From the IMG/VR virus record IMGVR_UViG_3300038393_000804, positions 83,598-147,597 of that record: a stretch of 64,000 bases of DNA. One strand, written 5' to 3'. The position numbers and the translations under genes were made by a program. Shown here piece by piece: positions 2,686 to 53,836 of the stretch. The notes below the pieces were generated by a model. It saw only the letters and a list, made by a program, of their open reading frames with translations, was not told the origin of the DNA and ran no database searches. How positions within the stretch are numbered: position 1 is the first letter of the stretch; every line of letters starts with the position of its first letter. The DNA is from a virus (lineage: Duplodnaviria; Heunggongvirae; Uroviricota; Caudoviricetes).

Positions 2686-5670
2686 TTACCAGCGACTTCT
2701 TGACGGCATTCCGCTTCTTCCGCCGCCCGAACCTCTAGCACCCCAGCCCAATGAAGTTCCGCGCTTTCCTACGCTTGTTTTGCGTGGTGGCGGAGGAGTA
2801 GGTTCATCCCATTTCTGGATGTACTCTTGTTTCTCCTGTTGGGTTCTGTCAGTACCTCTATAGATTCGTCCAAGCGGGTCAACGAACTTAACGTCCGCAA
2901 CCGCTACGGTTCTAGCTGGCTGTGAATCCTCAATGGTCTTAGCAATGTCAGGCATTTGGTCAATGAATGCAAAGATACCCAACATCATCGCATCGAGTGC
3001 GTGCTCATCAACATTGGTGTAAGTCGGTTCGCCAGTCTTCGGAGAAATACGTTCTACTGTGTAGTTCGTCATCTGTCTGAAGATAACTTCGTCAACATCC
3101 TTGTTAGGAATCATCAACTGACCACGTTCCAATATGAGTGTCGTTTGGTTAACCATGAACGGCTTTAACGGCTTGTTATCAAACTCACGACTATATGGGT
3201 CACGTACTAGATAAGAGCTGCCAAGTGCAATACCCTTAACGACATCGCCCAATGTCTTACGCAACATTTCGACCTGATATTCACCTGAGCCTCTGTCGGC
3301 ATAAATGGCGAATGGTCTGTAAATGTTATTGAGTTCAATAATCTTCCGAACCGCGTTATCATAGGTAAATTCGCCCTTTGGTATTTCTACACGATTGATG
3401 ACTTGGAATCGTCCATATTTGACTACTCCTGGCCCATCAACCTCTGGGCGTGGTCGCCTTTCTAAGAATGGATTCCATTGAGTAACAACGATTTGAGTCG
3501 CTGCACCCATCTTATCCCAGTCAACGCCAATGGCGATTGGGCTGTCCATCCTAGGCTGGCTGAGTAAAGCGTAACCATTAGACGCTGCCTCGTCAATATA
3601 ATCTTTGTTAAATACCCCCACTAATTCTGTACCGAAGTTCGCCATAACCTCATGGTCGTAAGCCACGTCACTGTAAAGGTTGCGTAATTCCCTTTCCATC
3701 TTCGGTGACCAGCCTGGGTTAACCATCGTTGGGAAGTAGAACTCCGCCCATCCTTCAGCTAGTTTTCGGTCATAAGTGCGGATATCAAATTGATTTGCCA
3801 GCTTACCTTCTACATCAGGGCCACCTTTAAATAGTCTTACATCTTGATTTAGCTTTTCCTGAGTACAGATTTGCCAGAATTTGCCCCGTCGTCCAGTCGG
3901 TGTAGATGCAACCATTACGCCGATTTCATCTGGTCTTTCAAGGGTAATCGCGAAGATAGCTTCAAAGTCTTTGTCGCCAAGGTAGTCAACCTCATCCATG
4001 TATAGCCAAGATGCTTTCTGACCACGGAGAGAACCACCCTCTGTACCACTACGAGTACCAGCTGTGTACAGCTTAATACGAGATTTATTCTTGAAGACAA
4101 TCTCATATGGAGAACGACGGATACTAGCAACCGCTGCTTGAAGCACTGGATTATTGTTAATGAAGTTGTTTAACTGGTCAAATATCTCACGGGCCTGTGT
4201 ATCGTATGGTGTTGCAACCAGACATGTAGCACCTTTCTTCAGCTCTGTACCACCATTACATGTAAAGGCAACCCAAAGCATATGCGCTGTCATTGTCCAT
4301 GTGTTATGCACCAATACATCTTCTACTACTAGGTTGTGAGTCTCTGGAACGAATACGTCATAAGTCTGACGCTTACCCAGTGGCTCAATCGCCGTCACTT
4401 CTTCCCAGATAACATCAGCACGAGCCAAGTCATAAAGGAATGCGGACTCAAGATTGTCAGCATACTTACGAATCTTAGAAATAGTCGGAGCTACGCCAGG
4501 ACGAAGACGTTCGTCTTTGCCGCCAGCTACCTGAGCTTTCGACATTTTCTTCTCTTTACGCTCTTGGTCAATATGCTTCCACACTTCAATAGGAACAGTG
4601 TGTTCTACTACTTCTGTCTTCTCTGCTTGCTCCACAATACCTTTCATTGTGTATTCAGAGCCAAGAATATTAATGTCCATGCCGAAAAGCATTAAGCTTT
4701 CGCGTCTATGAATCATCAATTGATAGATAAAGCTGACGTTGTCCTTGTACTTCTGCCTCTTTGTTTGGAGATTTGTCTGGATACCGAAGCGAAGCAATAG
4801 GTGCTTAACATCCTGTGCAAGCTTCTTAGATACTGTTGCAAATCCAATCTCTGGACGTGTGCCATTATAAACCCATCCACTTACTGCATATAAGCAATTT
4901 AGGAAGATAGATATTTGCTCTTTCTTCAATCCATAAATGAAACTAGGAATCTTTCTTTCTATTACTGCCATAAGGATGTCTTCATCAATAGAAGAAGCAA
5001 TGACACATGTATTCTCCTTATGAGCTTGGCGAATAACCTTTAGTCCATACTTCTCTGCATTATAGATGAAATCTTTCATAACAGTCTGAGACTTAGTACT
5101 GAATGTTAATTGGCTTCCGTTGTAATGTCCGCCTGCAATCAAATAAGCAATAAGCTTTACCTTTTCATAGAGCGTTAATCCGTTCCCGAAATAAGGCATA
5201 GCTGATGGTGTTGCAATGCGCATTCCCTTTTGAAGAGCATCCACTTCCACCCAACCATCTAATGTTAATACAGGATGATTGCCAGTCAGGATAACTTCTG
5301 CCCCGTATTTAGTGCGCACAAGAAATGTTTCCTTTACCCCATTGTCCTCTACAAAGAAAGCTTCACTTGGTTCTAAGTGATACTTCTCGTTTAATGTGAT
5401 GAGTGACGGTTTGCCGCCATCTTTCTGCATTTGGAATAGCTCTTCTACTGACCAGTACTCTCCTGTTACTGGGTCTAATACACGTTGGGTTTCCTCAATA
5501 CATTTTCCGATACGTCGTCCGCATCGAAGAACTTTACGGTGGTGAGGATGTCTTAAGATTTGCTCTTGATACCAACGAGGGGCCTCACCTAAATGGTGAG
5601 CTGCCCACTTCGCTGGGTCACGCATAATCTCAATCATTTCCCTATCGTGATTAGTAAATTGTTTTGCCAT
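2686..5670 (-). CDS. terL: terminase large subunit, interrupted in-frame by an intein
   Basis: Exteins join as CGRRIGK|TWT, giving a Walker A GxxxxGKT. Walker B LYMDEVD follows. A C-terminal nuclease-like region is present. Intein blocks: CIEET (A), GNHPVLT (B), LIAYLIAGGHY and FLNCLYAVSGWV (LAGLIDADG), VLVHN|T (G). Confidence 0.85.
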   Translation of the reverse strand: MAKQFTNHDREMIEIMRDPAKWAAHHLGEAPRWYQEQILRHPHHRKVLRCGRRIGKCIEETQRVLDPVTGEYWSVEELFQMQKDGGKPSLITLNEKYHLEPSEAFFVEDNGVKETFLVRTKYGAEVILTGNHPVLTLDGWVEVDALQKGMRIATPSAMPYFGNGLTLYEKVKLIAYLIAGGHYNGSQLTFSTKSQTVMKDFIYNAEKYGLKVIRQAHKENTCVIASSIDEDILMAVIERKIPSFIYGLKKEQISIFLNCLYAVSGWVYNGTRPEIGFATVSKKLAQDVKHLLLRFGIQTNLQTKRQKYKDNVSFIYQLMIHRRESLMLFGMDINILGSEYTMKGIVEQAEKTEVVEHTVPIEVWKHIDQERKEKKMSKAQVAGGKDERLRPGVAPTISKIRKYADNLESAFLYDLARADVIWEEVTAIEPLGKRQTYDVFVPETHNLVVEDVLVHNTWTMTAHMLWVAFTCNGGTELKKGATCLVATPYDTQAREIFDQLNNFINNNPVLQAAVASIRRSPYEIVFKNKSRIKLYTAGTRSGTEGGSLRGQKASWLYMDEVDYLGDKDFEAIFAITLERPDEIGVMVASTPTGRRGKFWQICTQEKLNQDVRLFKGGPDVEGKLANQFDIRTYDRKLAEGWAEFYFPTMVNPGWSPKMERELRNLYSDVAYDHEVMANFGTELVGVFNKDYIDEAASNGYALLSQPRMDSPIAIGVDWDKMGAATQIVVTQWNPFLERRPRPEVDGPGVVKYGRFQVINRVEIPKGEFTYDNAVRKIIELNNIYRPFAIYADRGSGEYQVEMLRKTLGDVVKGIALGSSYLVRDPYSREFDNKPLKPFMVNQTTLILERGQLMIPNKDVDEVIFRQMTNYTVERISPKTGEPTYTNVDEHALDAMMLGIFAFIDQMPDIAKTIEDSQPARTVAVADVKFVDPLGRIYRGTDRTQQEKQEYIQKWDEPTPPPPRKTSVGKRGTSLGWGARGSGGGRSGMPSRSRW
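4303..5502 (-). mobile_element. Intein of about 400 aa (TerL residues about 57-456) with a LAGLIDADG homing endonuclease domain, inserted in the TerL P-loop
   Basis: Starts with Cys right after GRRIGK and ends in HN followed by Thr. Two LAGLIDADG-like motifs lie between the splicing blocks. Confidence 0.7.
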
Positions 5671-10094: not shown

Positions 10095-10333
10095 AAAAGA
10101 AGCCGTTCCTTGTTGCACCCCCATGGATGATATTTTTCTTCTTTATATCTCATACCGCAATGTGGTTTGTTTCTTTTGGTCAAACGATTTGGATTGTTAG
10201 GGAAGTAAGAAAAGAAATTCGCGTTTTATATAATAAATTAAAATAATAACAAAAAAGGTATCCTTCTCTGACGGCTCCCATTTCACTGAATGTTTAATAG
10301 CCCGTAGAAGATACCTTTTATTGCCGAAGGCTC

Positions 10334-10458: not shown

Positions 10459-10681
10459 ATGGTTCGTTTACCTAGCTTAACATGGAGTAATGTAGTGTGT
10501 GTGCTTGTGTTGTATCCTTATTATAGGTTTCGCGTTTTATATTAACAACAAGTATATATTACCTCTTTACTCTTCCCTCTCTATGTGCTTCCCTATGTCT
10601 TTCCCTATAGCTACTCTCTATACTCTTATAGGACATATCAATAGGAGGCTTCGCCTCCATGTGACTCTCCTAATCCATTAA

Positions 10682-10888: not shown

Positions 10889-11024
10889 CAGCTCTCACCC
10901 TCTGTTCTATATAAAGAAGACCCACCGCCATTAGCTGATAAAGAATGGAGATTCTTTTATAACTTAACCTTATGTGAAAGGTGATTCGGCGGCCACCGTT
11001 AGGTGGAATGGGTCTGTTTTTAAT

Positions 11025-11078: not shown

Positions 11079-11093
11079 GTTACCTTAAGGTTA
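11079..11093. promoter_or_regulatory. operator-like 15-mer GTTACCTTAAGGTTA (near-palindrome), with a second partial copy GTTACCTTAAC at 11100
   Basis: The same 15-mer recurs in inverted orientation at 27697-27712. Confidence 0.4.
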
Positions 11094-11130
11094 TTGCAGT
11101 TACCTTAACTTTATGATATACTCTGTTTAA
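11094..11130 (+). promoter_or_regulatory. sigma-A-like promoter TTGCAG-N17-TATACT driving the rightward early block
   Basis: -35 at 11094-11099, 17-nt spacer, -10 at 11117-11122. Confidence 0.5.
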
Positions 11131-11312: not shown

Positions 11313-11519
11313 ATGTATTATATTGAAGCATATCTTAACGCATGGTTGATTAAAAAACAGTACGATGATGTATTTACTTTCGGCCCATTTGAAAGCCAAG
11401 GAGACGCCTGGTTTGTGTGTGAAATGCTAAACAATGATAAGTTGAGATTCGAGGTTGGTACTGGTTATGGCAAAGAGGCCCTTAAAGAATCGTATCCAGT
11501 TTACAAGCACGTTGACTAA
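11313..11519 (+). CDS. small protein (68 aa), paralog of 11157-11309
   Basis: GGGAG RBS; sequence similarity to the upstream ORF. Confidence 0.55.
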   Translation: MYYIEAYLNAWLIKKQYDDVFTFGPFESQGDAWFVCEMLNNDKLRFEVGTGYGKEALKESYPVYKHVD

Positions 11520-11622
11520 AGAGAATTTCGCCGCCTTAAAGGAGCTGTCAGACACCACAAAGGTTCCACTATCCAAGCTAATGGATGAAGCAGTCGAGCT
11601 TCTCTTAGCAAAAAGAAATTGA
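11467..11622 (+). CDS. candidate ribbon-helix-helix (Arc/CopG-like) DNA-binding protein, 51 aa, overlapping the 3' end of the previous gene out of frame
   Basis: Pattern of a beta-strand (RIQFTSTL), helix (KENFAALKELSDTT) and helix (PLSKLMDEAVELLLA). The RBS is weak and the overlap unusual. Confidence 0.35.
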   Translation: MAKRPLKNRIQFTSTLTKENFAALKELSDTTKVPLSKLMDEAVELLLAKRN

Positions 11623-11869
11623 TTTGGGAGTAAAGCTAAAAAACGCGGCACACTGGGGTATAAGACAAATAAGTACAGTCTATAATATAGATAGCAAACA
11701 TTCTTACTGGCATTCCTCCAGTAGGTATATGTTTTACCATTAATATGTTTTGGCATAGGTTCTCTCCTATGGAAAGAGGCTTCTCTAGCGGAAAATAGAG
11801 AGGTCTTTTTTTATGGTCTCTTTTAGAACGTATGTTCTCTTATATAGAGAAAAAATGGTGTAATTTATT

Positions 11870-11896
11870 TTGCAGAGTGTTCCTTTGATATAAAAT
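11870..11896 (+). promoter_or_regulatory. candidate promoter (TTGCAG ... TGaTATAAA extended -10) upstream of 12080
   Basis: Hexamers read from the sequence; the spacer is suboptimal. Confidence 0.3.
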
Positions 11897-12079
11897 GATG
11901 GCTTCATTCTTTCGCCCACCCCCTTCCTACCTCTGAGTTCCTCCCAATGTGTGCTCCCTTTATAGGTGAAAAAGAATAAAATTTTTCAGCGACAAGGTAT
12001 ATTTATGAAGTTTGGTCAGTGAAACGTTTCATGCCCACCCCTTACTTCAAATACAACTAACCTATTGGAGGAATGTAAA

Positions 12080-12601: not shown

Positions 12602-12708
12602 GGGCCTCTATACAGAGGTCTTTATATGGGTACATAGTGTAGCCTCCTCGTGGCGTACCTGGATAACCAACCAATACACTAATACTAATATAAAGGTGGA
12701 ATATAAGA

Positions 12709-12875
12709 TGAACAAAACATTAACAGTAATTGAGAAATGCGAAAGAATGGATGCACATGCACCTAAATGGGAGATTTGGATTGGACAAGAACTAGTACAA
12801 ACTGTTGTATTCAGACAGTACTTAGAGGCTACTGTGGCCTACTACAAGAAGCAGCTAGCAAAGGGTGCTATATAG
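12709..12875 (+). CDS. hypothetical small protein, 55 aa
   Basis: AAGGTGG RBS before the ATG at 12709. Confidence 0.45.
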
Positions 12876-12965
12876 TAGGGCCTCTATATAAGGGGTGCTA
12901 TATAAGGGGCCTTCCTATAAGGGGGGTCTATATAAGGGGGGGTCCTATATAGGGCCTCCTATATT
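12866..12965. repeat. array of about 7 direct repeats of CTATATA(A)GGGG with 14-17 bp periodicity
   Basis: Read directly: gctatatagtaggg / ctctatataagggg / tgctatataagggg / ccttcctataagggggg / tctatataaggggggg / tcctatataggg / cctcctatattt. Confidence 0.6.
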
Positions 12966-13009
12966 TGTGTTTACATAAAAAACCTACAACTAGAAAAGAG
13001 GAAAAGAAA

Positions 13010-13710: not shown

Positions 13711-13814
13711 TATAGCCAGGTAGTTAGGCTATATGTGATTCGCCGTTCCCTTTATATCATGGCCCTTGTGGTCACCAATTAATAGTCGTGGGACTTTAAC
13801 CCTGGAGGACAAAC

Positions 13815-14334: not shown

Positions 14335-15213
14335 ATGGCAAGAAATTGGGGAAAGAAATACGAAGAAGTTAGCAAAAGAATGAGCAAGAAAGGTAAATTA
14401 GCAGCAGAAGGTCATCATTTAAAGCAGCAAGCTGATAAGAAACTAGCTACAGAATCACTAGAAGATAAAATGAAACGTACTGGTGTTACTAATTTTGAAA
14501 CTGAAGAAGTTGTAGATTACAACGTAGCAAATGCAGATGATGATGTTTGGGGTTTCATGAACAAAAGCTTTTACAATAAATTAATCGCAGATACTAAATT
14601 ACAAGCAGAGAAAGAGGTAGAGGAAATGATGATGGAACAATTTAAAGCAATGTTAAACGAGGTATTAGATGCAAGAGAAAGCAACAAGCGTGCAGAGGAA
14701 ATCAAATTGGCTGAACTACGTATCAGAGAATTAGAGCTTCAAGTTGAATTAGCTAAGCTGCAATCTGCTCCAGTTGAATTTGAATTAACTCCAATGGTTC
14801 CTGTTACTCATGGCAAGTTAGAAGAAGTAATCGAAGAGCATAGTACAGCTGTGAATACTATTTTGGATGCTATTGAGGTTACTGAAAAGCCTGCTAAGAA
14901 ACAACGTAAAGCTACTATTAAGAAGAAAGGTAGCAGCAGGCTTACTCTTAGCACTATTTGTACTCCACTTAATAAGGGTAGAAGTGGGTACTCTGTGGCT
15001 TGGTCTAAGGTGCCTAGTGATGAAGCTGGATTCTTAAATGTCATTATCCCTATTGTTGAATTTGCTATTGATAATGGGATTAATGTTAATGACACTAATG
15101 AGTTCCGTAAGTTCCATCCTGTATGTCAGGGTGCTTACATGCAATACACTAAGAAGTATCCTGGTCAAAAGGGCGTTTGGAAAGCATTTATTGCTGAACA
15201 CTTCAATAAGTAA
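14335..15213 (+). CDS. hypothetical protein, 292 aa, with a central coiled-coil
   Basis: AGGAGGAAAC RBS; terminator immediately downstream. Confidence 0.65.
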   Translation: MARNWGKKYEEVSKRMSKKGKLAAEGHHLKQQADKKLATESLEDKMKRTGVTNFETEEVVDYNVANADDDVWGFMNKSFYNKLIADTKLQAEKEVEEMMMEQFKAMLNEVLDARESNKRAEEIKLAELRIRELELQVELAKLQSAPVEFELTPMVPVTHGKLEEVIEEHSTAVNTILDAIEVTEKPAKKQRKATIKKKGSSRLTLSTICTPLNKGRSGYSVAWSKVPSDEAGFLNVIIPIVEFAIDNGINVNDTNEFRKFHPVCQGAYMQYTKKYPGQKGVWKAFIAEHFNK

Positions 15214-21100: not shown

Positions 21101-21609
21101 GGAAGTTGTCATCTAGTCGCATTTGCCACGGATTAATTAAAGCACAGTAGCCAGTTACCGAAGAACTGGTGAGGGGCATGTTGGTAACAGCATGCATTGG
21201 TTGGAGGGTGCTAGTAAGATTGCCAGGGTGGTATGGGTCCCTGAGCATAGTATGAAAGGAGTTGGTAAAAGTGCAAGGCCCGCCTAAGTTTGTCCTCGAT
21301 GTATACAGACAGAGTTACACTAGGGAGAGGAGAAATGGTTGGCGGGGGTTTACTGGGGAAGCAACACAAGCAATGGAGATGGAAACTATCATGAAACAAC
21401 ACGTACAAACATCTGAAGCAACAGCAATCAACAGCAAGTACCCAGGTCGTCTGTCTTTTACTCACCTACCGAAAGGGGGTGGGAGCCTAACGTAGTTAGA
21501 AACACCCGTCGCGGGGTTTCTTAAATGACGGGGAGAGTTTGTTCTGTTTCCTGCTCGATTCGCAGTTCCCTTTATTATGTTACTAAATTTTAAATTGGAG
21601 GAATTAATC

Positions 21610-25506: not shown

Positions 25507-26727
25507 ATGACTAAATTTGTAAAATTCGTAGCAACTACTGAAGATGTTAAAGCTGGTGTTGATGTTCTTGTTGAAGACTTCCAAATGACTGTTAACAACT
25601 TTACTGCTGAGGGCAAGAACGGACTTGAAGAAGCTGTTGATATGTATGTGATGGAAGCTATCAACGGCGGAGAGAAGTCCATCGCTGTAGTATCTGATGA
25701 TATCAATGTTGCTAATGCAATCGCTGCTGTACTAAACCAAGCATACACTAAGGAGATGGAATTAATGAAAACTACTAAAACTGCTGAAATCACTGTATCT
25801 GTTGAATCTACACCTGAAGAAAAGAAAGCTGCTACTATCGCTAAATCATCTGCTGCACAAAAGTTCTTGGCTAAACATGCAAACAAAGTTGAAAACACTA
25901 AGGAGGAAGTTGAAATGAAACAAGAAGAAAAGAAGGTTGCTGGTCGTCGTCGTTTAAATACTGGTGCTGCTACACAAGAAGAAAAGAAAGCTGAAGTAAA
26001 AGAAACTAAAACTACAACTAATGAAAAGGTGGAAACTGAAATGAATAAACCAAACCGTAAATCTACTAGCCGTGTACTAAAGAATACTAAGCCTGCTGCT
26101 GCTGAAGGTCGTCGTCGTCTAGGTCGCTCTGAATCAATCAAGAATGAATTCAAGAAGTTTGAAGGCCCTTGGTACTTGAATGCTGAACTATACCCTGTAT
26201 TAAACCGATTAGAAGGAATCCTTGAAACATTGTCTGATGCTGAACTAGGTATTGAGCAAATCGTATTGGTTGACCCAAGTGAAGTGTCTCGTACTCGTAA
26301 CAACCCAGACATCACTGTGGTAATCCAAATCAAAGCTAATGGTAACATCTTGGAGTTCCCAATCAAGAATGCATCTGCTAACTCTAGCTCTGACCTTGCA
26401 TCTACTTCTATTGGATGGGTGGATACAAAGAACGGCCTTCGTCCTGCATTCGGTTTCTGGAGACCTAATGAAATCAATGTGAAAGCTACTTGTACTTGCG
26501 GTAAAGAATTCAAAGGCAACACTGGTAACCTATACTGCACAAGCTGCAAGAAGAAACATGCTGACGCTGAAGTATCTGTATCACACGCTTTGGATATGGA
26601 GTTTGATGGCAACTGGGTATTCCAAACTGTTCCTAACTTGGTTGTACCTCGTGAAACTCTTGCATTAATCATGGCTATTGCTCAGTATGATGCTGGTCTT
26701 GACATGTGGGGAGTTGTAGCAGAGTAA
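25507..26727 (+). CDS. hypothetical protein, 406 aa, with a Lys/Glu-rich basic middle segment (repeated GRRRL)
   Basis: AAGGATGGTAAT RBS; terminator downstream. Confidence 0.65.
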   Translation: MTKFVKFVATTEDVKAGVDVLVEDFQMTVNNFTAEGKNGLEEAVDMYVMEAINGGEKSIAVVSDDINVANAIAAVLNQAYTKEMELMKTTKTAEITVSVESTPEEKKAATIAKSSAAQKFLAKHANKVENTKEEVEMKQEEKKVAGRRRLNTGAATQEEKKAEVKETKTTTNEKVETEMNKPNRKSTSRVLKNTKPAAAEGRRRLGRSESIKNEFKKFEGPWYLNAELYPVLNRLEGILETLSDAELGIEQIVLVDPSEVSRTRNNPDITVVIQIKANGNILEFPIKNASANSSSDLASTSIGWVDTKNGLRPAFGFWRPNEINVKATCTCGKEFKGNTGNLYCTSCKKKHADAEVSVSHALDMEFDGNWVFQTVPNLVVPRETLALIMAIAQYDAGLDMWGVVAE

Positions 26728-26736
26728 TTGTCACCA

Positions 26737-26760
26737 TGGGGGCTTCGGCCTCCTTTATTA
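26737..26760 (+). terminator. UUCG-loop terminator (GGGGGC-TTCG-GCCTCC plus TTTATT)
   Basis: Read directly. Confidence 0.6.
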
Positions 26761-27402
26761 CTATATAGGGAGATGATTACTTGTATGGGCTGCTAGTTTT
26801 ATACATTATCTATATACGCTGGAGAATATACCCGCCCGATACGCCGAGCGAAGCGAGGCCAAGCTTGACTGGTAGGAGGCGCGTTACAAGTTCAAGTGAA
26901 TGGGGGGAAGCTGTCACGGAGTTTACGCATGGGAAGGGGACCCTTAAGATTCGAACTTGTTGCGCCGACGCACGCGGGGAGCGTTTAGCTATAGAGGCCC
27001 CGTTCTTTATCGGACCCTGCGGTAGCAGGTGCAAGCCCGATGGCGAGCGATGAGCGAGCCATATGCAAATAGGGTGTGGGAGTCCCTATATAGGAGGACC
27101 TGCCTTCGGCTGACTATTCGCCTTCGGCTGGTTGAAGTTGTGGGGGGACCCCTTTAGAGGAGGCTTTCGCTGGTGGGCGTATTACGCCTGATTAATTGAA
27201 TTGAATTAATAGGTAGGATGTATATAGAGAGTATCATGTACTATATAGGTATATGGTATATATAGCAGGAACTATATAGGGAGAGGAAGACTATATAGAA
27301 TAGAGTGTTATACGTGGCGGCATTGTTTTTCATATGTGGTGTCATAATGCTATATGATTTAGCTAATAGGCATAAGTAGTACTATATAGGAGGAATGGTA
27401 GA

Positions 27403-27651
27403 ATGGAAGAGTTTATTGATAAGTGTATGTATGTATTAAAGGAAGGGATGACACTGGGCACCGACGGGCTATTCATCTCTTATATAGGCAATGATATCTA
27501 TATAGTACAGGACCCTGTATTACCAGAGTGTGATACCGAAGAAGGTCCAGTGGAGATACGCCGCCGCTTGGAGGAATACTATATAAGCCATCCTATGGAG
27601 ATGGAGATGGACAGAGACTATATAGAGGAACGCATAGGGAGCGCCGTGTAG
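27403..27651 (+). CDS. hypothetical acidic protein, 82 aa
   Basis: TAGGAGGAATGG RBS; contains CTATATAG motifs within the coding sequence. Confidence 0.5.
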   Translation: MEEFIDKCMYVLKEGMTLGTDGLFISYIGNDIYIVQDPVLPECDTEEGPVEIRRRLEEYYISHPMEMEMDRDYIEERIGSAV

Positions 27652-27696
27652 GTGACTCCCTTTCTCTCTGGATGTCATAAAGTCATGGTAACTTAC

Positions 27697-27712
27697 TTAA
27701 CCTTAAGGTAAC
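27697..27712. promoter_or_regulatory. operator-like motif TTAACCTTAAGGTAAC (reverse complement GTTACCTTAAGGTTAA), the inverted copy of the 11079 motif
   Basis: 15/16-nt identity with 11079-11093 in the opposite orientation. Confidence 0.4.
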
Positions 27713-28115
27713 AAATGGACACACTAAAAGTGGGCCTAGGTAAGACACAATGAATGTTTGAGGGTACTGGTAGTAAAAAGTCCTTGCGTACCAAGGGTTT
27801 GAGAGGTTATGTTTATTTATTTGTACCTTGTGCCTATATTATGGGTGACTAATGACTAAAGTCATAAGTACTATAATAAGAGGTAAAAGTGGAAAATACA
27901 CCTATGAAAGGAAAGTTGTATGGATAATTATAATAAATGTGCTATATGGTTTTGTTTAGGTATAGGTACTTCTATGTGGTTAGGTGTTCTATTAGCTTAT
28001 CTTGTATGGGGTAATGCTATATGGTCTATCTCTATATAGTTGTCTATGTCTTATTGTACTATATAGTGATGTTGTAATCATAAGGTAATCCCGCCCGCCA
28101 TTAGGAGGTGATGTT

Positions 28116-28319
28116 GTGGATAGACAGTCGGTAAGTGTTGGTGCTAAGTCATGGATGGTTATGTCGTTCTTGATTGAATCATGTATGGCATTTACTATGT
28201 GGTCTGTTATACCATGGTTCTTTAAGCTATGGACTGTATTCTGTTTGATGATAGATTTATTCTTAATAAGCAGGGAGTTTATCCTGCACCCGATTAGTAG
28301 GAGGAATGTATATGTTTAG
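28116..28319 (+). CDS. small membrane protein (67 aa), paralog of 43265-43504
   Basis: AGGAGG RBS and GTG start. Alignment: SVGAKSWMVMSFLIESCMAFTMWSVIPWFFKLWTVFCLMIDLFLISREF against SIGAKTWMVCSLLIETTMTIVTWAAIPLFFKIWSVVCLMIDAFLILREF. Confidence 0.55.
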   Translation: MDRQSVSVGAKSWMVMSFLIESCMAFTMWSVIPWFFKLWTVFCLMIDLFLISREFILHPISRRNVYV

Positions 28320-38906: not shown

Positions 38907-40025
38907 ATGAAAATCGTCGGTACTGGTAAAACATTTAGAATTTATGGTGATGACCTTAAAACTTACAACGAACTTCCAGCAGCTACATACAAGGTGGAGT
39001 TCCATCCAATGATGGGCTTTTATTTGACAGAGGTAACAAGCTTTGAAACTACTGAGGAGAAAATCTATGGCTCTCATGCTGAGAAGATTACAAAAGTTTT
39101 GAAATCTTACGAGAAGTTTAATCGTAGCATGGGTATTATCCTTTCTGGTAAAAAAGGCATGGGTAAATCAATGTTCGTTCAATTGATTGCAGAAGCAGTT
39201 GTTGCGAAGGGTATTCCAGTTGTCATGGTTACGAAGGCATTCCCAGGCATTGCTGATTTCATTGAGGAGATTGAACAAGAATGCTTAGTTATCTTTGATG
39301 AATTCGAGAAGATGTTTGCTTCTAATCGTGGTCATCAATTTGGCGGTGGCGGTAATCAACAACAGAATCCTAATGTTGAGAATCAAGACAATCTATTGGG
39401 TCTGTTCGATGGTACATCTCAACAGAAGAGATTGTATGCTATCACTGTTAATGATTTGAATCGAGTAAATGAGTTCATGTTGAGCCGCCCTGGTCGCTTC
39501 CATTATCACATTCGCTTTGACTATCCATCATCTGCTGAGATTCAAGAGTATTTAGGAGATAAGGTTGCTCCAGAATATCATGGCGAAATCAACCATGTTG
39601 TATCATTTGCAAATCGTGTGAAGCTTAACTACGACAGTCTACGTGCAATCGCGTTTGAATTAAATGAAGGGTATTCGTTCAAGGAGGCTATTGGTGACCT
39701 GAACATCTTGAATACAGATGACCAACGTTACAATGTAAAAGTTGTATTCTCTGATGGTAAGTCACATGACCTAAAGAGTCAGCGTTTAGACTTATTCTCT
39801 GAAGAGATTCGATTGGATGGCTATATGGGCAGTGGCAAATACTTCTCATTGAGCTTTAATCCAGCTACGATTGTCGAAGAGGTAACTCAAATGACTGTTC
39901 CTGCTGATGCTATCACGGTGAATGTAACAGATGAAGAGGGAGACCCAACAGAAGAAGTTCAAGTAAGTGGTATTGTTATCAAACAACAATATGATACTGG
40001 TGTGAACTACAAATTAGCATATTAA
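38907..40025 (+). CDS. AAA+ family ATPase, 372 aa
   Basis: Walker A GKKGMGKS and Walker B LVIFDEFE. ACTGGAGGAATT RBS. Confidence 0.7.
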   Translation: MKIVGTGKTFRIYGDDLKTYNELPAATYKVEFHPMMGFYLTEVTSFETTEEKIYGSHAEKITKVLKSYEKFNRSMGIILSGKKGMGKSMFVQLIAEAVVAKGIPVVMVTKAFPGIADFIEEIEQECLVIFDEFEKMFASNRGHQFGGGGNQQQNPNVENQDNLLGLFDGTSQQKRLYAITVNDLNRVNEFMLSRPGRFHYHIRFDYPSSAEIQEYLGDKVAPEYHGEINHVVSFANRVKLNYDSLRAIAFELNEGYSFKEAIGDLNILNTDDQRYNVKVVFSDGKSHDLKSQRLDLFSEEIRLDGYMGSGKYFSLSFNPATIVEEVTQMTVPADAITVNVTDEEGDPTEEVQVSGIVIKQQYDTGVNYKLAY

Positions 40026-44143: not shown

Positions 44144-45574
44144 ATGTCGATGATGGATTTGCCACCACCGCTAAAACCTACAGAAACATTAGAGCTGCTT
44201 AGAGCATACAAGGCGGGGGATGAGGAAGCTAAAGAGAAAGTAATTGAAGGTAATCTCAGGTTGGTAGTGCATATTGCAAAAAAGTATGACAACACAGGAC
44301 TAGACATAGAGGATTTGTTTAGTATTGGATTAATCGGTATGATTAAAGCTGTTCATACTTTTAACACAGAGAAGGAAGTCAAGTTTGCTACATACGCTTC
44401 ACGATGCATCGACAACGAAATCTTGATGTTCCTTCGGAAAGGTAAGAAAATCAAAGCTGAAACGTCCATTGACAGCCCGATAACGACGGATATAGATGGA
44501 CATGAATTAACTTTGATGGATGTCACGCCTGATAAGAACATCCAACATTTCTCAGAAGTGTTTGAATGGAACGATACCATGGCTGAAGTACGAGCTGCAT
44601 TGGAAGGCTTGTCGCCACGGGATAAAGATATTATTCTTATGCGTTACTTTCAAAATCAAACACAACGGGAAGTGTCGGCGGCACTCGATATCTCTCAGTC
44701 CTACATATCAAGGATAGAGAAAAAGATATTGAAGAAAATAAAAAAGACCATTGAGTCTAATCAAGCTAAGGCAGAAAGGAATGAAGAGAAAATGGCTAGA
44801 GGAATTGCACCAGCCAATAAGAAAGAAGTTATTCACTTGTTAAAGACAACGACGATGTCTTACAAAGAAATCAATGAAAAGACAGGCGTACCTTACAGCA
44901 CTATTGCAACGTATGCTCAGAAGCACCGTCCAAAAGAAGTGCGGAAGGAAAAGATGACTAATCATCCAGGCATGGTTCGTGAACATAGCGGGGACACCGA
45001 TAAAGCGGTCCAGTTGTTGGCAGAAGGTAAATATACCTATGCAGAGATATCAAAACAAACAGGTGTCCCAACAGGTAGTCTAACCAGATTACGTCGTTTA
45101 TATGAGAAAGGCGATTACAAATGGGTCAATGAACCTAAGAAACGGGTGGAGATTGAAGTACCAGTTGAAACGCCAGTGATTAATCATCCAGCTTTCATGG
45201 GTGAAAAAGACAAGGAAAGGTTGGTAGAACAAGTGCCTGTTGTAAAACATGAAGTTGAGCAAGTGGAAATCAAGAAGCCTGAACAGCCTGTTGTGAATAT
45301 GGCAGAAGCAATCGAAGAGTTCAAGGCTGAAATCAAAGCCGAGCTTCGTGCAGAAGTTGAAGCAGAGGTTCGCAAGGAGATGGCTGCTGAAAGCGTTGCT
45401 ACAGAGACATCACCAATGGGTAAGATTCAAAAGCTTCTAACATTTAAGTATCATGCTTCGGGCGGGAACGTTCCAACTGAAGATTTCGTAGCTGAAATGA
45501 AAGAGCTGATTAGCATGCTTGAAGAAAGCAATAACGGTTCTATCACATTCACATTAAATGTAGAAGCTGAGTAG
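44144..45574 (+). CDS. sigma-70 family sigma factor resembling sporulation SigF/SigG (regions 2-4), fused to a roughly 270-aa C-terminal extension carrying two extra HTH-like repeats
   Basis: Region 2 IEGNLRLVVHIAKKYDNTGLDIEDLFSIGLIGMIKAVHTFN...KFATYASRCIDNEILMFLRK. Region 4 LSPRDKDIILMRYFQNQTQREVSAALDISQSYISRIEKKILKKIKK. Confidence 0.8.
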   Translation: MSMMDLPPPLKPTETLELLRAYKAGDEEAKEKVIEGNLRLVVHIAKKYDNTGLDIEDLFSIGLIGMIKAVHTFNTEKEVKFATYASRCIDNEILMFLRKGKKIKAETSIDSPITTDIDGHELTLMDVTPDKNIQHFSEVFEWNDTMAEVRAALEGLSPRDKDIILMRYFQNQTQREVSAALDISQSYISRIEKKILKKIKKTIESNQAKAERNEEKMARGIAPANKKEVIHLLKTTTMSYKEINEKTGVPYSTIATYAQKHRPKEVRKEKMTNHPGMVREHSGDTDKAVQLLAEGKYTYAEISKQTGVPTGSLTRLRRLYEKGDYKWVNEPKKRVEIEVPVETPVINHPAFMGEKDKERLVEQVPVVKHEVEQVEIKKPEQPVVNMAEAIEEFKAEIKAELRAEVEAEVRKEMAAESVATETSPMGKIQKLLTFKYHASGGNVPTEDFVAEMKELISMLEESNNGSITFTLNVEAE

Positions 45575-52170: not shown

Positions 52171-52251
52171 ACTCTATGTGGTTCTATTTATCCTAGAGGG
52201 TATAACGAGCTTGACCAGCTCACAACTTATGTGTTGTACCTTCTAAGATAA
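52171..52251 (+). repeat. hairpin unit A (about 20-bp imperfect stem, about 34-nt loop containing a GAGCT/AGCTC sub-hairpin)
   Basis: Left GGTTCTATTTATCCTAGAGGGTA is the complement of right TACCTTCTAAGATAAATAGAAATT. Confidence 0.5.
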
Positions 52252-52412
52252 ATAGAAATTAAGATGAGTGCCGCGGCCTTCTAAGCCGCCTTGCACATCT
52301 ATTGATTCTGAAATCTGTTTATTACCATGTGTATATTAAGCTAGGGTGATGGAGCTTTGACGAAGTTTAAATGTCACGCAGCGTGGCAGCCTGTTGACGT
52401 TGAATTACACAT

Positions 52413-52509
52413 GGTTCTATTTATCTTGGAGGATGCAATGATATGACCGCGGATTATGCCCGATTGTAGGCCCCGCCTTTGCATCTTCCCAGATGAATAG
52501 AAATTAAGG
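52413..52509 (+). repeat. hairpin unit B
   Basis: Left GGTTCTATTTATCTTGGAGGA pairs with right TCTTCCCAGATGAATAGAAATT. Confidence 0.45.
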
Positions 52510-52677
52510 ACACATGGACCCCGCTAATAGCGTAAGCGGTCTACTGAAATCTGTTTATCCCACATCAATGCCAAGGATTAAATATGGGCTGCGGACTTCC
52601 TACGCCTTCGTGATTGATTCAAGGAGTGGTCAACATCGAAGGAAGGGGGATTATGGTACACCGTCCGAAGTTGATGT

Positions 52678-52831
52678 GGTTCTATTTGTCTTAGACAGTA
52701 TGATGGTAGGTAGGTTTTTTAGGTTATCTCCAACCAGTATTTTTTACTACCTAAGTGAGTTGACTTCTTGGGAGCAGCTACACTTCAGTGACGATTGACA
52801 TCGTGCTGTCTAAGATGAATAGAAATTAAGG
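52678..52831 (+). repeat. hairpin unit C (longer loop, about 107 nt)
   Basis: Left GGTTCTATTTGTCTTAGACAG pairs with right CTGTCTAAGATGAATAGAA. The two mismatches are both G-U-compatible. Confidence 0.5.
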
Positions 52832-53056
52832 TTGCCTAAGAATAGGGTTACGGCGATGACAACGCTGGTAATTAATGTCCTCATAGCGAGTAAAAGCGAG
52901 ATTCCCGCCATACCGTTTTAGGTGAAGGTCTTAGGATTAATCTGAAATCTATATGTCACATCCAGTTATTAAGCTAGTGGCAGGCTACTGCGCGAGCACG
53001 GGGCCGTGAAACGATGATGCTGAACGCTGGATGTTTTGTTTAATGAAAGGAGGTAA

Positions 53057-53836
53057 ATGATGCACCCGACTGAAGTTGAATACGAAAGACGACCTTATGA
53101 AGGTCAGATTGATGCAGGCATGAAAACATTCATGGATATAATGGATTCAGTTGCAATGGAACATGGAACACAATGGTCATTTGCAGGTGGGTTTCCTAGG
53201 GATTTATACAAGGGAAAGCACTGGAATGATTATGATGTTTGTATTCGTGATGTTCCTTATGCAAGAGACATCTTAGAAAAGACAGGAGTGTTAGCACTTG
53301 GGCAGCAGGATGGAACAGAGATTCCTCATGACATCTATTGCGACCCCTACACATTCACGAAATCAGAAATACCTGTTCATTGGATTAATGCAGATGATGA
53401 GTGGGCATTCGCTCCCGTTCGTTTTGACTTTAGTATTAATCAGATATGTTTGAAGTCAGATGGTTTTTTCTATGCTCCGAAGTATGCATGGCGTGACCTT
53501 GATAGAGGAATCATTAGAAAAACAACGGACAGGATGACAACAAACTTAGCAACACGGGCGATTCGGTTCGCTGCCAAGTATGGATTCACCATTGATACTC
53601 CATTGAATGCTGAAATAAAAGAAGCAGTTAAGGAGCCAATGGGCACAGATATTCTTCTTCGTAATTGCTTAAAGATGGTTGAAGATGAAGTTGGTGATAC
53701 ATGCTTTAAGATAATGAAGAACCGTGGATTTCCTCACATGGAAGAATGCAAAACAATGGGTGATTATATTAGAAAGTTAAACAACATGATTGTCAGTGGG
53801 CAAGGACACCGCGAAGAAAGTCCAGGCGGATATTAA
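53057..53836 (+). CDS. minimal nucleotidyltransferase resembling the head domain of CCA-adding/polyA-polymerase enzymes, 259 aa
   Basis: GGFPRDLYKGKHWNDYDVCIRD fits GGxxRD...DxD; AAAGGAGGTAA RBS. Confidence 0.55.
   Translation: MMHPTEVEYERRPYEGQIDAGMKTFMDIMDSVAMEHGTQWSFAGGFPRDLYKGKHWNDYDVCIRDVPYARDILEKTGVLALGQQDGTEIPHDIYCDPYTFTKSEIPVHWINADDEWAFAPVRFDFSINQICLKSDGFFYAPKYAWRDLDRGIIRKTTDRMTTNLATRAIRFAAKYGFTIDTPLNAEIKEAVKEPMGTDILLRNCLKMVEDEVGDTCFKIMKNRGFPHMEECKTMGDYIRKLNNMIVSGQGHREESPGGY

Follow-up and report, generated by a model that had tools for sequence, protein, structure and literature searches.

The locus raises a simple question: what is the role of the 8-bp palindrome CTATATAG, which recurs between and inside the small genes near 27 kb of the 64-kb stretch of phage DNA analysed here (the window)? 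The local enrichment proposed by the first-pass annotation was borne out. The window contains 12 exact copies against 0.68 expected from dinucleotide-preserving shuffles (shuffle maximum 3), and 50 one-mismatch copies against 25 expected. Ten exact copies (26761, 27086, 27241, 27272, 27291, 27382, 27498, 27618, 28032, and 28059) and eight one-mismatch copies (26810, 26989, 27220, 27258, 27480, 27579, 27942, and 28017) fall in one cluster. The remaining two exact copies (12868 and 12945) lie outside the interval first annotated, both within a 15-bp-period array at 12868-12966 that also has three one-mismatch copies. Local TA-richness does not explain the cluster, because segment 26728-28115 has 10 copies where shuffles preserving its own dinucleotide content give 0.18. 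The positions first reported were right to within 2-4 nt (27084 becomes 27086 and 27622 becomes 27618); the four copies assigned to 27222-27300 proved to be three exact and two one-mismatch copies, and the pair at 27483-27505 to be one exact copy plus TTATATAG at 27480. The extended forms were found as described, with GGGAG following the motif at 26761 and 27272, and GGAGG at 27086 and 27382.

About 60 kb of other sequence of the clade, outside the clusters, contains no CTATATAG. No copy was found beyond the window in the same phage, either in a 9.8-kb stretch of structural genes or in 2 kb on the opposite side, or across 27.6 kb of structural genes of the related phage L006; the structural (late) genes covered, about 48 kb, are without a single copy. 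Motif avoidance elsewhere was considered and rejected: coding sequence contains less TATAG than synonymous shuffles do, but the shortfall is as large for TATAA and TTATA, so that the effect is unspecific. The cluster DNA matched none of 50,697 phage records, IMG/VR searches seeded with the 406-aa and 82-aa proteins of the locus returned nothing, and a scan of a genome collection with the invariant doublet pattern gave one chance match, in an archaeal MAG. Literature searches found no report on CTATATAG in phages, on the cultured relative KLEB27-3 or on phage WH1.

The cluster begins just past an intrinsic terminator (GGGGGCTTCGGCCTCC then TTTATT, 26738-26753) that closes the 406-aa gene. Copy 1, aCTATATAGGGAGA (26761-26768), starts 8 nt past this terminator, upstream of a short hydrophobic leader ORF and a GC-rich element; copy 2, CCCTATATAGGAGG (27086-27093), lies within that element beside twin GCCTTCGGC hairpins. 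An AT-rich spacer (27220-27298) follows with five copies (GTATATAG at 27220; CTATATAG at 27241, 27272, and 27291; ATATATAG at 27258) and a block, GCAGGAACTATATAGGGAGAGGAAGACTATATAG, that is nearly invariant in four phages. After the spacer, a micro-ORF (27314-27379) would encode a 21-aa peptide, hydrophobic and ending in a basic tail. L006 and another relative, L007, conserve this micro-ORF, and there the preceding motif copy provides its Shine-Dalgarno sequence. Next comes CTATATAGGAGGAATGGTAGAATG (27382-27389), fused to the Shine-Dalgarno sequence of ORF 27403-27651. A downstream sub-cluster (27942-28066; CTATATGG at 27942 and 28017, CTATATAGT at 28032 and 28059) is in and after a 39-aa membrane ORF, upstream of ORF 28116-28319, and the 1.1-kb segment that carries it is missing in L006 and partly present in L007.

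All these sites are on the plus strand, as is the second array (array A, 12868-12966), which consists of seven head-to-tail CTATATA(A/G)GGGG units repeated roughly every 15 bp (unit starts 12868, 12884, 12898, 12913, 12928, 12945, and 12959). The stop codon of ORF 12708-12875 falls in the first unit. At the other end of the array, a hairpin (12937-12960) made by the last units runs into a T-rich tail; no hairpin in 20 kb looks more like a terminator. A shorter array occupies the homologous place in L006 (about 482-545). Two near-copies complete the set: TTATATAG at 11840-11847 (plus strand), 25-30 nt past a terminator in a non-coding stretch downstream of a gene for an RHH protein, and TTATATAGAacagagggtgagagctgATG at 10907-10914 (minus strand), upstream of the first minus-strand gene (10888-10682). 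The homologue of the former in phage L016 is an exact CTATATAG.

Four close metagenomic relatives, L006, L010, L015, and L007, whose proteins are 84, 81, 69, and 60% identical to the 837-aa protein neighboring the cluster, each have 5-13 motif copies directly downstream of the homologue of the 406-aa gene, and the 8-mer is palindromic in all five phages. More distant relatives retain GTATATAGGTA, CCTATGTAGAAGAGAGGAAGAG-ATG, and TATATATAGA with the palindromic ends lost; the forms in L031, L033, and KLEB27-3 are GTATATAGG, CTATGTAG, and TATATATAGA. Judging from these retained forms, the conserved core is TATATAG plus purines, not the palindrome. CTATATAG itself is not enriched in the whole KLEB27-3 genome (4 copies), which instead has one local TATATATA cluster and scattered sites where TATATAG adjoins a Shine-Dalgarno sequence, distributed cassette by cassette.

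The motif is directional. Its local consensus is (T)A-CTATATAG-GRRRA, with information only at the 8-mer, at A in position -1, and at G/G/G/G/A in positions +1 to +5; from -45 to -2 there is no conservation, and each position upstream of -1 carries <0.3 bit. A sigma-A promoter at the sites was rejected in that the -35 score equals background, and a T7-like promoter in that this low information content upstream of -1 leaves no specificity region. In all five phages and in KLEB27-3 the motif starts 1-22 nt past a terminator (in KLEB27-3 at 146303), so there is no space for a two-box promoter. The motif thus stands in sense orientation directly upstream of putative transcription units that lack a -35/-10 pair.

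It also keeps a single register with the following gene. In the arrangement CTATATAG/GAGG-N7-9-ATG, the motif lies 11-14 nt before the ATG at no fewer than four independent positions, and the same arrangement occurs in KLEB27-3; in at least nine sites the Shine-Dalgarno sequence starts at the motif's last base. The cassette form of motif plus Shine-Dalgarno sequence is CTATATAGGAGG-ATG. Overlap with ribosome-binding sites, noted at first sight of the sequence, was confirmed at 27382 (for ORF 27403-27651), 26761, and 27291. The fusion seen at 27382 recurs at 15388 in L007, and in L006 the copy at 14473 stands farther upstream of the homologous ORF. L007 has an additional, inserted gene, which carries its own motif and Shine-Dalgarno sequence.

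ORF 27403-27651 (plus strand, 82 aa) has, as was first proposed, copies of the motif within its coding sequence: four in-frame copies or near-copies at 27480 (TTATATAG), 27498, 27579 (CTATATAA), and 27618, all reading TAT-ATA for Tyr-Ile. Tyr-Ile pairs are encoded as TAT-ATA in 4 of 4 cases in this ORF, against 3 of 38 elsewhere. Among homologues of the ORF the Tyr residues are conserved, and the Ile residues and the motif sites turn over. The motif in this ORF is maintained by nucleotide-level selection, against codon usage. Because of this selection, and because the cluster positions are conserved in four related phages, CTATATAG is strongly supported as a functional phage cis-element.

The GC-rich element (26830-27200, plus strand) is a candidate structured RNA within the cluster, about 58% GC, conserved and non-coding; a coding role was rejected as its reading frames are not conserved between phages. 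Motif copies flank it and break it up, and all five close phages have the copy at 27086, which the short RNA forms of L031 and L033 lack. Covariation in the element was informative, and a thermodynamic test was not (z = -0.45). Rfam gave no match in the window at the gathering score, and within 26600-28200 at E<=10 only a chance snoRNA match; tRNA and tmRNA scans were negative. Pattern scans of IMG/VR with the element's invariant blocks returned nothing or unrelated GC-rich contigs, and a scan of a single metagenome only one unrelated organism, four times over.

The reading we tentatively prefer is that CTATATAG is the core of a compact, directional start signal for a phage-encoded, non-sigma RNA polymerase. 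A readily melted TATATA box would abut the start point, initiation would occur at or just past the final G, and transcripts would open with a purine-rich stretch that in several cassettes would be the Shine-Dalgarno sequence itself. Working without a -35/-10 promoter, such a signal would allow small gene cassettes and a structured RNA of roughly 350 nt to restart immediately after intrinsic terminators. A start at the G is favored because the Shine-Dalgarno sequence then stays in the transcript; a sigma-type -10 element would start transcription downstream of the ribosome-binding site. Some features fit a promoter poorly: array A, with seven units at 15-bp spacing, looks more like a homotypic protein-binding cluster, as do the four turning-over copies in the 82-aa ORF, and a promoter role does not account for the perfect C...G palindrome found in the close subgroup.

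A candidate for the enzyme comes from the structural module. The clade encodes an unannotated protein of ~2,450 aa in which a signature of the beta-prime active site, NRYPTI…Q…KADYDGD, is kept without exception. In KLEB27-3 gp034 ('structural protein') and 21 homologues of 2,366-2,546 aa, NRYPTI..Q...KAD(Y/F/N)DGD is invariant; the protein occurs in three cultured Bacillus phages (KLEB27-3, WH1, and Edson, labelled 'structural' or 'hypothetical'; the WH1 copy is annotated 'virion structural protein') and in at least 19 metagenomic relatives. Nine of 12 catalytic segments matched Pfam PF00623, the Rpb1 active-site domain (best E 2.3e-6), and hhalign aligned the motif with NRAPTLHRLGIQAF...NADFDGDQM of E. 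coli beta-prime; a search of PDB sequences with the giant-protein profile found no polymerase. The polymerase assignment draws on the Pfam matches, the hhalign alignment and the invariant motif. The gene is outside the window, and its presence in the window phage is deduced from the 84%-related phage L006, whose contig also carries the homologue P0023, and from the cultured relatives.

From the signature and from others' annotation, which are the grounds for both packaging and activity, we infer that the giant protein would be an active, virion-injected polymerase. Presumably delivered by the virion, it would start at the motif and serve a few (pre-)early regions. A fuller proposal, possible but rather doubtful, is of a clade (KLEB27-3, WH1, Edson, and uncultivated relatives including the window phage) that would combine a virion-borne, single-chain, two-barrel polymerase of ~2,450 aa with a minimal TATATA/G initiator, messages led by a Shine-Dalgarno sequence, and a new RNA of ~350 nt. 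The host polymerase may act earliest, since the early arm opens with a good promoter of sigma-A type (TTGCAG-17-TGaTATACT, about 11094-11125).

Other candidate polymerases were sought. The 837-aa neighbor was rejected: it had no Pfam, PHROG, or PDB match and no DxDGD motif, its AlphaFold model was mediocre (pLDDT 62), and Foldseek against the PDB gave nothing below E 0.2. Split beta/beta-prime genes were not seen (no DxDGD in the ORFs of the window), and no T7-like polymerase is annotated in KLEB27-3.

The first-pass annotation had also suggested sites for a dimeric RHH-type regulator. This remains a serious though unlikely alternative, in which a small dimeric phage regulator (RHH or similar) would bind the palindrome cooperatively in two control regions and switch the small-gene cassettes and the RNA on or off. 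The perfect palindromic core in the close subgroup is as expected for it, as are the very high local multiplicity at only two or three loci, the 15-bp period of array A with copy numbers that differ between phages, the recurring doublets at 18-20 bp spacing, and the in-ORF copies, constant in number and shifting in position. The phage also has a suitable gene, RHH_3 (11467-11622, E 9e-14), which is conserved in KLEB27-3 and L016, down to the same DNA-reading strand, QFTSTL. However, the flanks are asymmetric (A upstream, a G-run downstream), array A included; distant relatives lose the palindromic ends and keep TATATAG plus purines; there is no -35/-10 promoter at a fixed distance to occlude; and DNA binding leaves the fixed Shine-Dalgarno register unexplained. 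Moreover, a distinct palindrome, GTTACCTTAAGGTTA, sits at or flanks the RHH operon promoter and is the more natural RHH operator. A less probable reading still is that the signal acts as RNA: CUAUAUAG beside the Shine-Dalgarno sequence would serve in translational control, in processing or in pairing with its own complement, and a protein, a nuclease or the motif copy in the structured RNA would use it to control translation or stability of cassette mRNAs. Fusion to the ribosome-binding site in one register at four or more independent positions and in KLEB27-3 is consistent with this, as is a Shine-Dalgarno-like 3' flank even without a downstream ORF. So is the way in which copies bracket and interrupt a conserved RNA element, whose mid-RNA copy UCCCUAUAUAG is an 11-nt perfect complement of two CUAUAUAGGGA sites, and the capacity of the doublet to form an 8-bp stem displaying an invariant GGAGAGGAAGA loop. 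Yet L031 and L033 keep the RNA without the mid-RNA copy, the array A units CTATATAA cannot pair mutually and so leave no compensatory pattern, about 70% of copies are not beside a start codon, the stems are short and AU-rich, and no candidate RNA-binding protein or nuclease was found.

Promoter function through a sigma factor, the other form of the phage-specified promoter first suggested, is improbable: here host RNA polymerase, carrying the phage sigma encoded at 44144-45574, would recognize the motif as a lone -10-type element, in the manner of T4 late TATAAATA. That sigma is SigE/SigK-like (E 3e-66 and 2e-65), KLEB27-3 has two sigma genes, and the motif is an AT-rich element of 8-9 bp without a -35 partner. 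But the start would fall about 7 nt downstream, within or past the fused Shine-Dalgarno sequence, the roughly 48 kb of structural genes where a phage sigma is expected to act lack the motif, and the motif is unlike the SigE/SigK -10 consensus, CATA...TA. Neither a start about 7 nt downstream nor a spread over the genes of a class, as in T4-late-type promoters, was seen for CTATATAG. The RNA polymerase form of the suggestion leads instead, the sites being directional, post-terminator, abutting the ribosome-binding site and without a -35 element, and a protein with the beta-prime motif being at hand. The opposite function, a stop or pause signal for the phage polymerase beside host-type hairpin terminators, multiplied in array A for a tight stop, has slightly more to recommend it and is still improbable. 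Copies directly follow intrinsic terminators, array A lies at a gene's 3' end with its last units forming the terminator-like hairpin, and stop sites of the P23-45 virion polymerase carry a conserved 26-nt motif (PMC10770324). There is no reason, however, why a stop signal should hold a constant register to the Shine-Dalgarno sequence of the gene that follows or stand at the 5' end of inserted cassettes, and four of them in one small conserved ORF would cut short the very message that encodes it. Least probable of all is a replication origin (iterons or an unwinding element beside a structured primer RNA) or a packaging or nicking site (for terminase or a nickase). Repeat clusters in and beside an ORF, near an AT-rich stretch and a GC-rich structured transcript, would suit an origin, and the second array is 14 kb away; against this, GC skew does not turn at 27 kb, neither the replication-type genes (36-40 kb, with a loader-like gene at 38907-40025) nor the terminase gene (2686-5670) lie next to the cluster, and the link to ribosome-binding sites and the cassette-wise distribution in KLEB27-3 go unexplained. 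Nothing was found in support of the restriction, nicking or packaging signal raised at the outset.

To return to the start signal for a phage polymerase, its likeness to known elements is partial. T7/SP6-type promoters have start regions …CACTATAGGGAGA / …ACACTATAGAAGA, and the resemblance lies in a TATA melting box set against a G-rich start, as ACTATA(TA)G with GGGAGA or GAAGA after it; unlike those 18-23-bp promoters, the element here lacks the -5 to -17 specificity region. MetJ met-box arrays, the operators of ribbon-helix-helix repressors, are tandem 8-bp palindromes, and here too an 8-bp palindrome occurs in multiple adjacent copies in a phage with an RHH gene, but the spacing is 15-31 bp, not 8, the two flanks differ, distant relatives have lost the palindromy, and the sites have no overlapping sigma-type promoter. 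As in T4-type PeSL (promoter-early stem-loop) cassettes, a repeated expression signal and a terminator hairpin surround small variable ORFs in a plastic early region, and cassettes are gained and lost with their own signal; PeSL cassettes carry a full sigma-70-type early promoter, whereas only an 8-13-bp element is common to the cassettes here.

Virion polymerases offer the closer comparison. In Thermus phage P23-45, whose virion polymerase is fused to the tape measure, an AT-rich motif is restricted to the upstream regions of pre-early genes close to one end of the genome, and among relatives it occurs only in those having the polymerase fusion (PMC10770324). The present motif is likewise phage-specific, AT-rich, confined to a few early units with many repeats and conserved only among relatives, and the candidate reader, proposed from its signature, would likewise be a two-barrel polymerase in a giant virion or tail protein. 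It differs in host and lineage, these being relatives of Bacillus-type jumbo myoviruses, and in that the motif is 8-13 bp long, abuts the ribosome-binding site and also occurs as a 15-bp tandem array and in in-ORF clusters. Promoters of the AR9 virion polymerase read AAATATATATTAT-(6N)-G; late promoters of phiKZ read TATG, where transcription starts at the G (PMC5312081). These share with our element its richness in TA repeats, a nearby G start (proposed here), the lack of a -35 element and, if the promoter reading holds, a non-sigma phage polymerase as reader. AR9 and phiKZ have split multisubunit polymerases and 40-90 promoters genome-wide, in contrast to the two regions, and no split genes seen, here. 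Virion polymerases need not have an upstream motif at all, as that of the crAss-like phage phi14:2 shows no common one.

On present sequence evidence, CTATATAG most likely marks where a phage polymerase starts on a handful of small early genes and on a new structured RNA. If so, it would be a ready, testable promoter for an unannotated giant polymerase-like protein, and the first promoter class defined for that polymerase. The injected-polymerase strategy of N4, crAss-like phages, and P23-45 would then reach Gram-positive jumbo phages, and a promoter as compact as 8-13 bp, fused to a ribosome-binding site, would have practical appeal for expression tools in Bacillus. The motif would also mark the first-expressed small genes and the conserved structured RNA, and so point to takeover functions. 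Should it turn out to act as an operator or at the RNA level instead, the motif still defines a small regulon that is conserved among uncultivated phages.

The window contains 12 exact copies of the palindrome CTATATAG, where dinucleotide-preserving shuffles gave an expected 0.68 and never more than three; 10 of the 12 fall within 26761-28066. Shuffling this 1.4-kb stretch with its own dinucleotide content gave 0.18 copies, so local TA-richness is not the cause of the cluster; the same stretch holds eight further copies with one mismatch. The local enrichment near 26760-28100 described in the first-pass annotation was thus borne out, and its motif coordinates were right to within a few bases. 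The other two exact copies (12868 and 12945) had escaped it; they are part of a tandem array (array A, 12868-12966) of seven head-to-tail CTATATA(A/G)GGGG units with a period of ~15 bp, lying between two small genes.

The window, part of a large phage genome, matched none of 50,697 phage records at the DNA level; its nearest cultured relatives at the protein level are the Bacillus jumbo phages KLEB27-3, Edson, and WH1, and an 837-aa protein encoded beside the cluster is 33% identical to its KLEB27-3 homologue. Homologues of this protein led to four metagenomic relatives (L006, L010, L015, and L007, with 84, 81, 69, and 60% identity, respectively). Each has 5-13 exact copies of CTATATAG, by far the commonest 8-bp palindrome in each locus, directly downstream of the homologue of the 406-aa gene that also adjoins the cluster. 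Homologous positions recur across phages: just past the 406-aa gene terminator, adjoining twin GCCTTCGGC hairpins, in the nearly invariant block GCAGGAACTATATAGGGAGAGGAAGACTATATAG, and before a micro-ORF and the homologue of ORF 27403-27651 (ORF82). Array A has a counterpart at the homologous place in L006. The motif is absent from a further 9.8 kb of structural genes and 2 kb of the far end of the window's phage, and the L006 phage lacks it throughout 27.6 kb of its structural genes. A composition-level frequency without positional bias, which would have spoken against a functional motif, was therefore not what we found: with clusters conserved in place and none in other clade sequence, CTATATAG is an element under selection.

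More distant relatives carry variants: L031 (45%) has GTATATAGGTA twice, L033 (37%) has CCTATGTAGAAGAGAGGAAGAG immediately preceding an ATG, and in KLEB27-3 copies of TATATATAG(A) cluster locally. On this comparison the conserved core is TATATAG plus purines, the palindrome-making C...G ends being limited to the close subgroup. Dense local clusters of TATATA or TATATATA also lie among small ORFs in WH1 (L036, 22364-23500) and KLEB27-3 (L001, 16283-17142; 11 copies of TATATATA in 860 bp), similarly far into the early arm.

Within ORF 27403-27651, Tyr-Ile is written as TAT-ATA in each of four motif copies or near-copies; the rest of the window uses this codon pair in only 3 of 38 Tyr-Ile pairs, matching the 7.6% expected from codon usage. 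In an alignment of ORF82 homologues the tyrosines are kept, unlike the isoleucine after each; in the distant homologue from L033, which lacks the motif, the corresponding places read YS, YR, YT, and WI. The in-ORF sites differ among close phages, and their number stays at two to four. Selection on the motif in this ORF thus acts at the nucleotide level.

Information-content analysis of 47 motif sites in five phages limited the signal to the 8-mer, the A just before it (-1), and the five bases after it (+1 to +5: G, G, G, G, A). There was no conservation from -45 to -2 at these sites, and the best -35 match was no better than at random positions. The units of array A also carry the trailing G-run, though without a gene start after each unit, so the flanks are asymmetric and oriented as the genes are. 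In the five phages the first copy starts 1-22 nt past the intrinsic terminator of the upstream gene, an order also seen at KLEB27-3 146303. The motif end and the Shine-Dalgarno sequence merge in a single register (CTATATAG followed directly by GAGG), with ATG 11-14 nt after the motif. This fusion is found at four or more independent positions: before the leader ORF (L006 13820, L015 5668) and L007's own leader (14748), an ORF inserted in L007 (14058), the micro-ORF (L006 14386, L007 15300), ORF82 (window 27382, L007 15388), and in KLEB27-3 (192958, 146303). The L007 insertion, placed between terminator and RNA element, brings its own motif and Shine-Dalgarno sequence, and the window has a 1.1-kb segment, bearing two further copies, that L006 lacks. 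Because the motif follows terminators, abuts ribosome-binding sites, and travels with cassettes, the element behaves as the 5' signal of small gene cassettes. Products of the cluster include very small hydrophobic proteins of 21, 39, and 67 aa (27314-27379, 27920-28039, and 28116-28319, plus strand), which resemble small membrane toxins or takeover peptides; the 21-aa peptide is conserved in L006 and L007.

Inside the cluster lies a GC-rich (~58%) non-coding island of ~350 nt (26830-27200, plus strand), kept in all five close phages more tightly than neighbouring genes; its reading frames are not conserved among them. The consensus fold, derived from the same five sequences, has 18 pairs changed on both sides versus 8.7 ± 2.1 in shuffles and 0-5 in slid controls. 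L031, L033, and Bacillus phage WH1 have shortened versions that keep both ends (5' CCCGAUACGCCGAGCG..GCGAGGC; 3' twin GCCUUCGGC hairpins). The island has no Rfam match and is a candidate new structured RNA.

Structural genes occupy the minus strand at 1-10.9 kb, among them a large terminase gene (2686-5670, minus strand) split by an intein with a LAGLIDADG endonuclease domain; early and middle genes form a long plus-strand arm from ~11.1 kb. This arm is headed by a good sigma-A-type promoter (TTGCAG-17-TGaTATACT), and the KLEB27-3 arm has the same arrangement with a homologous ribbon-helix-helix (RHH) gene. A second palindrome, GTTACCTTAAGGTTA (11079-11113, plus strand; 27698-27712 and 28075-28089, minus strand), flanks the -35 box of this promoter and probably serves as operator for another regulator, which may be the RHH protein. 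A paralogous copy of the promoter region, GTTACCTTAAGGTTA…GTTACC…ACTTTATGA, is found on the minus strand immediately past ORF 27403-27651; two related copies occupy the homologous place in L006. The non-coding stretch past the RHH gene is conserved (window 11623-12060, KLEB27-3 L001 680-1185, WH1 L036 6215-6745), with pieces such as AAAATTTTTCAGCGACAAGGTATAT, then GCCCACCCC. The 19-mer GATTCGCNGTTCCCTTTAT, with two intergenic copies (13737-13755 and 21557-21575, plus strand; 0.02 expected), is possibly a further regulatory signal. TATAAAACGCGAA has two exact copies (10218-10230 and 10529-10541, minus strand) within the long stretch of non-coding DNA that heads the structural arm; the spacer of a promoter-like site (TTGTTA-17-TATAAT) contains one of them. 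Long non-coding stretches at 52197-53060 (plus strand) contain three AGATGAATAGAAATTAAGG-like motif copies and other repeats.

The window's large ORFs contain no DxDGD motif, and searches with the neighbouring 837-aa protein as a possible polymerase gave nothing. In the complete KLEB27-3 genome, gp034, a 2,434-aa 'structural protein' (OM634661 35003-42307), contains ADYDGD, with a weak Pfam PF00623 match over exactly that stretch. Related genes lie at L035 10001-17641, in WH1 (LC597490, ~95.8 kb), and in Edson (PV796108, ~94.4 kb), and the 88.7-kb contig that carries L006 encodes one homologue as well. A set of 22 homologues, 2,366-2,546 aa long, keeps GLYG.vNRYPTI...T.Q...GTA...KAD(Y/F/N)DGDF...HY, with three aspartates, the glycine, and R-P-I-T-Q invariant; PF00623 was matched by 9 of 12 catalytic segments (best E 2.3e-6). 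With hhalign, the catalytic stretch aligned with the E. coli beta-prime segment NRAPTLHRLGIQAF...NADFDGDQM. The giant-protein profile turned up no polymerase among PDB sequences, so the polymerase assignment rests on motif and Pfam. Only three cultured phages have the giant protein: KLEB27-3, WH1 ('virion structural protein'), and Edson ('hypothetical protein'), none with a polymerase annotation; this structural-module protein is a candidate virion RNA polymerase of the clade.

What reads the motif can be weighed against this background. The -10 box of a host holoenzyme must lie ~7 nt before the start; given the fusion of motif and Shine-Dalgarno sequence, a sigma-type start would fall inside or after the latter. 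This speaks against sigma-A as well as the phage's own 476-aa sigma factor (44144-45574, plus strand; closest to the sporulation sigmas SigE/SigK, with extra C-terminal helix-turn-helix domains), as do the absence of a -35 element, with no room for one after the terminators, and the lack of the motif in the structural genes. A sigma-dependent -10 box is thus very improbable. A T7-type enzyme is excluded, as the -5 to -17 specificity region is missing. With its seven units, array A resembles a homotypic cluster of binding sites, as do the in-ORF copies with their turnover, and this speaks against a promoter; an operator array, set beside the fusions to ribosome-binding sites, is possible if rather unlikely. 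Those fusions would suit an RNA-level signal adjoining the ribosome-binding site, which is nevertheless unlikely. A stop signal for the phage polymerase is improbable, and an origin or packaging site is the most improbable reading.

Published precedents make a motif-polymerase link plausible. In P23-45, the tape-measure-fused virion polymerase works from an AT-rich motif that is confined to sites ahead of pre-early genes near one end and to relatives sharing the fusion (PMC10770324); AR9 virion-polymerase promoters are AAATATATATTAT-(6N)-G, and late promoters of phiKZ read TATG, transcription starting at the G (PMC5312081). Against a promoter reading, no promoter motif is shared among the targets of the crAss-like virion polymerase, and it is a sigma-A promoter that heads the arm. 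The reading we favour, tentatively, is that CTATATAG may be a compact promoter of the initiator type, used by the giant polymerase-like protein of the clade, which would then be both an active polymerase and a delivered one.
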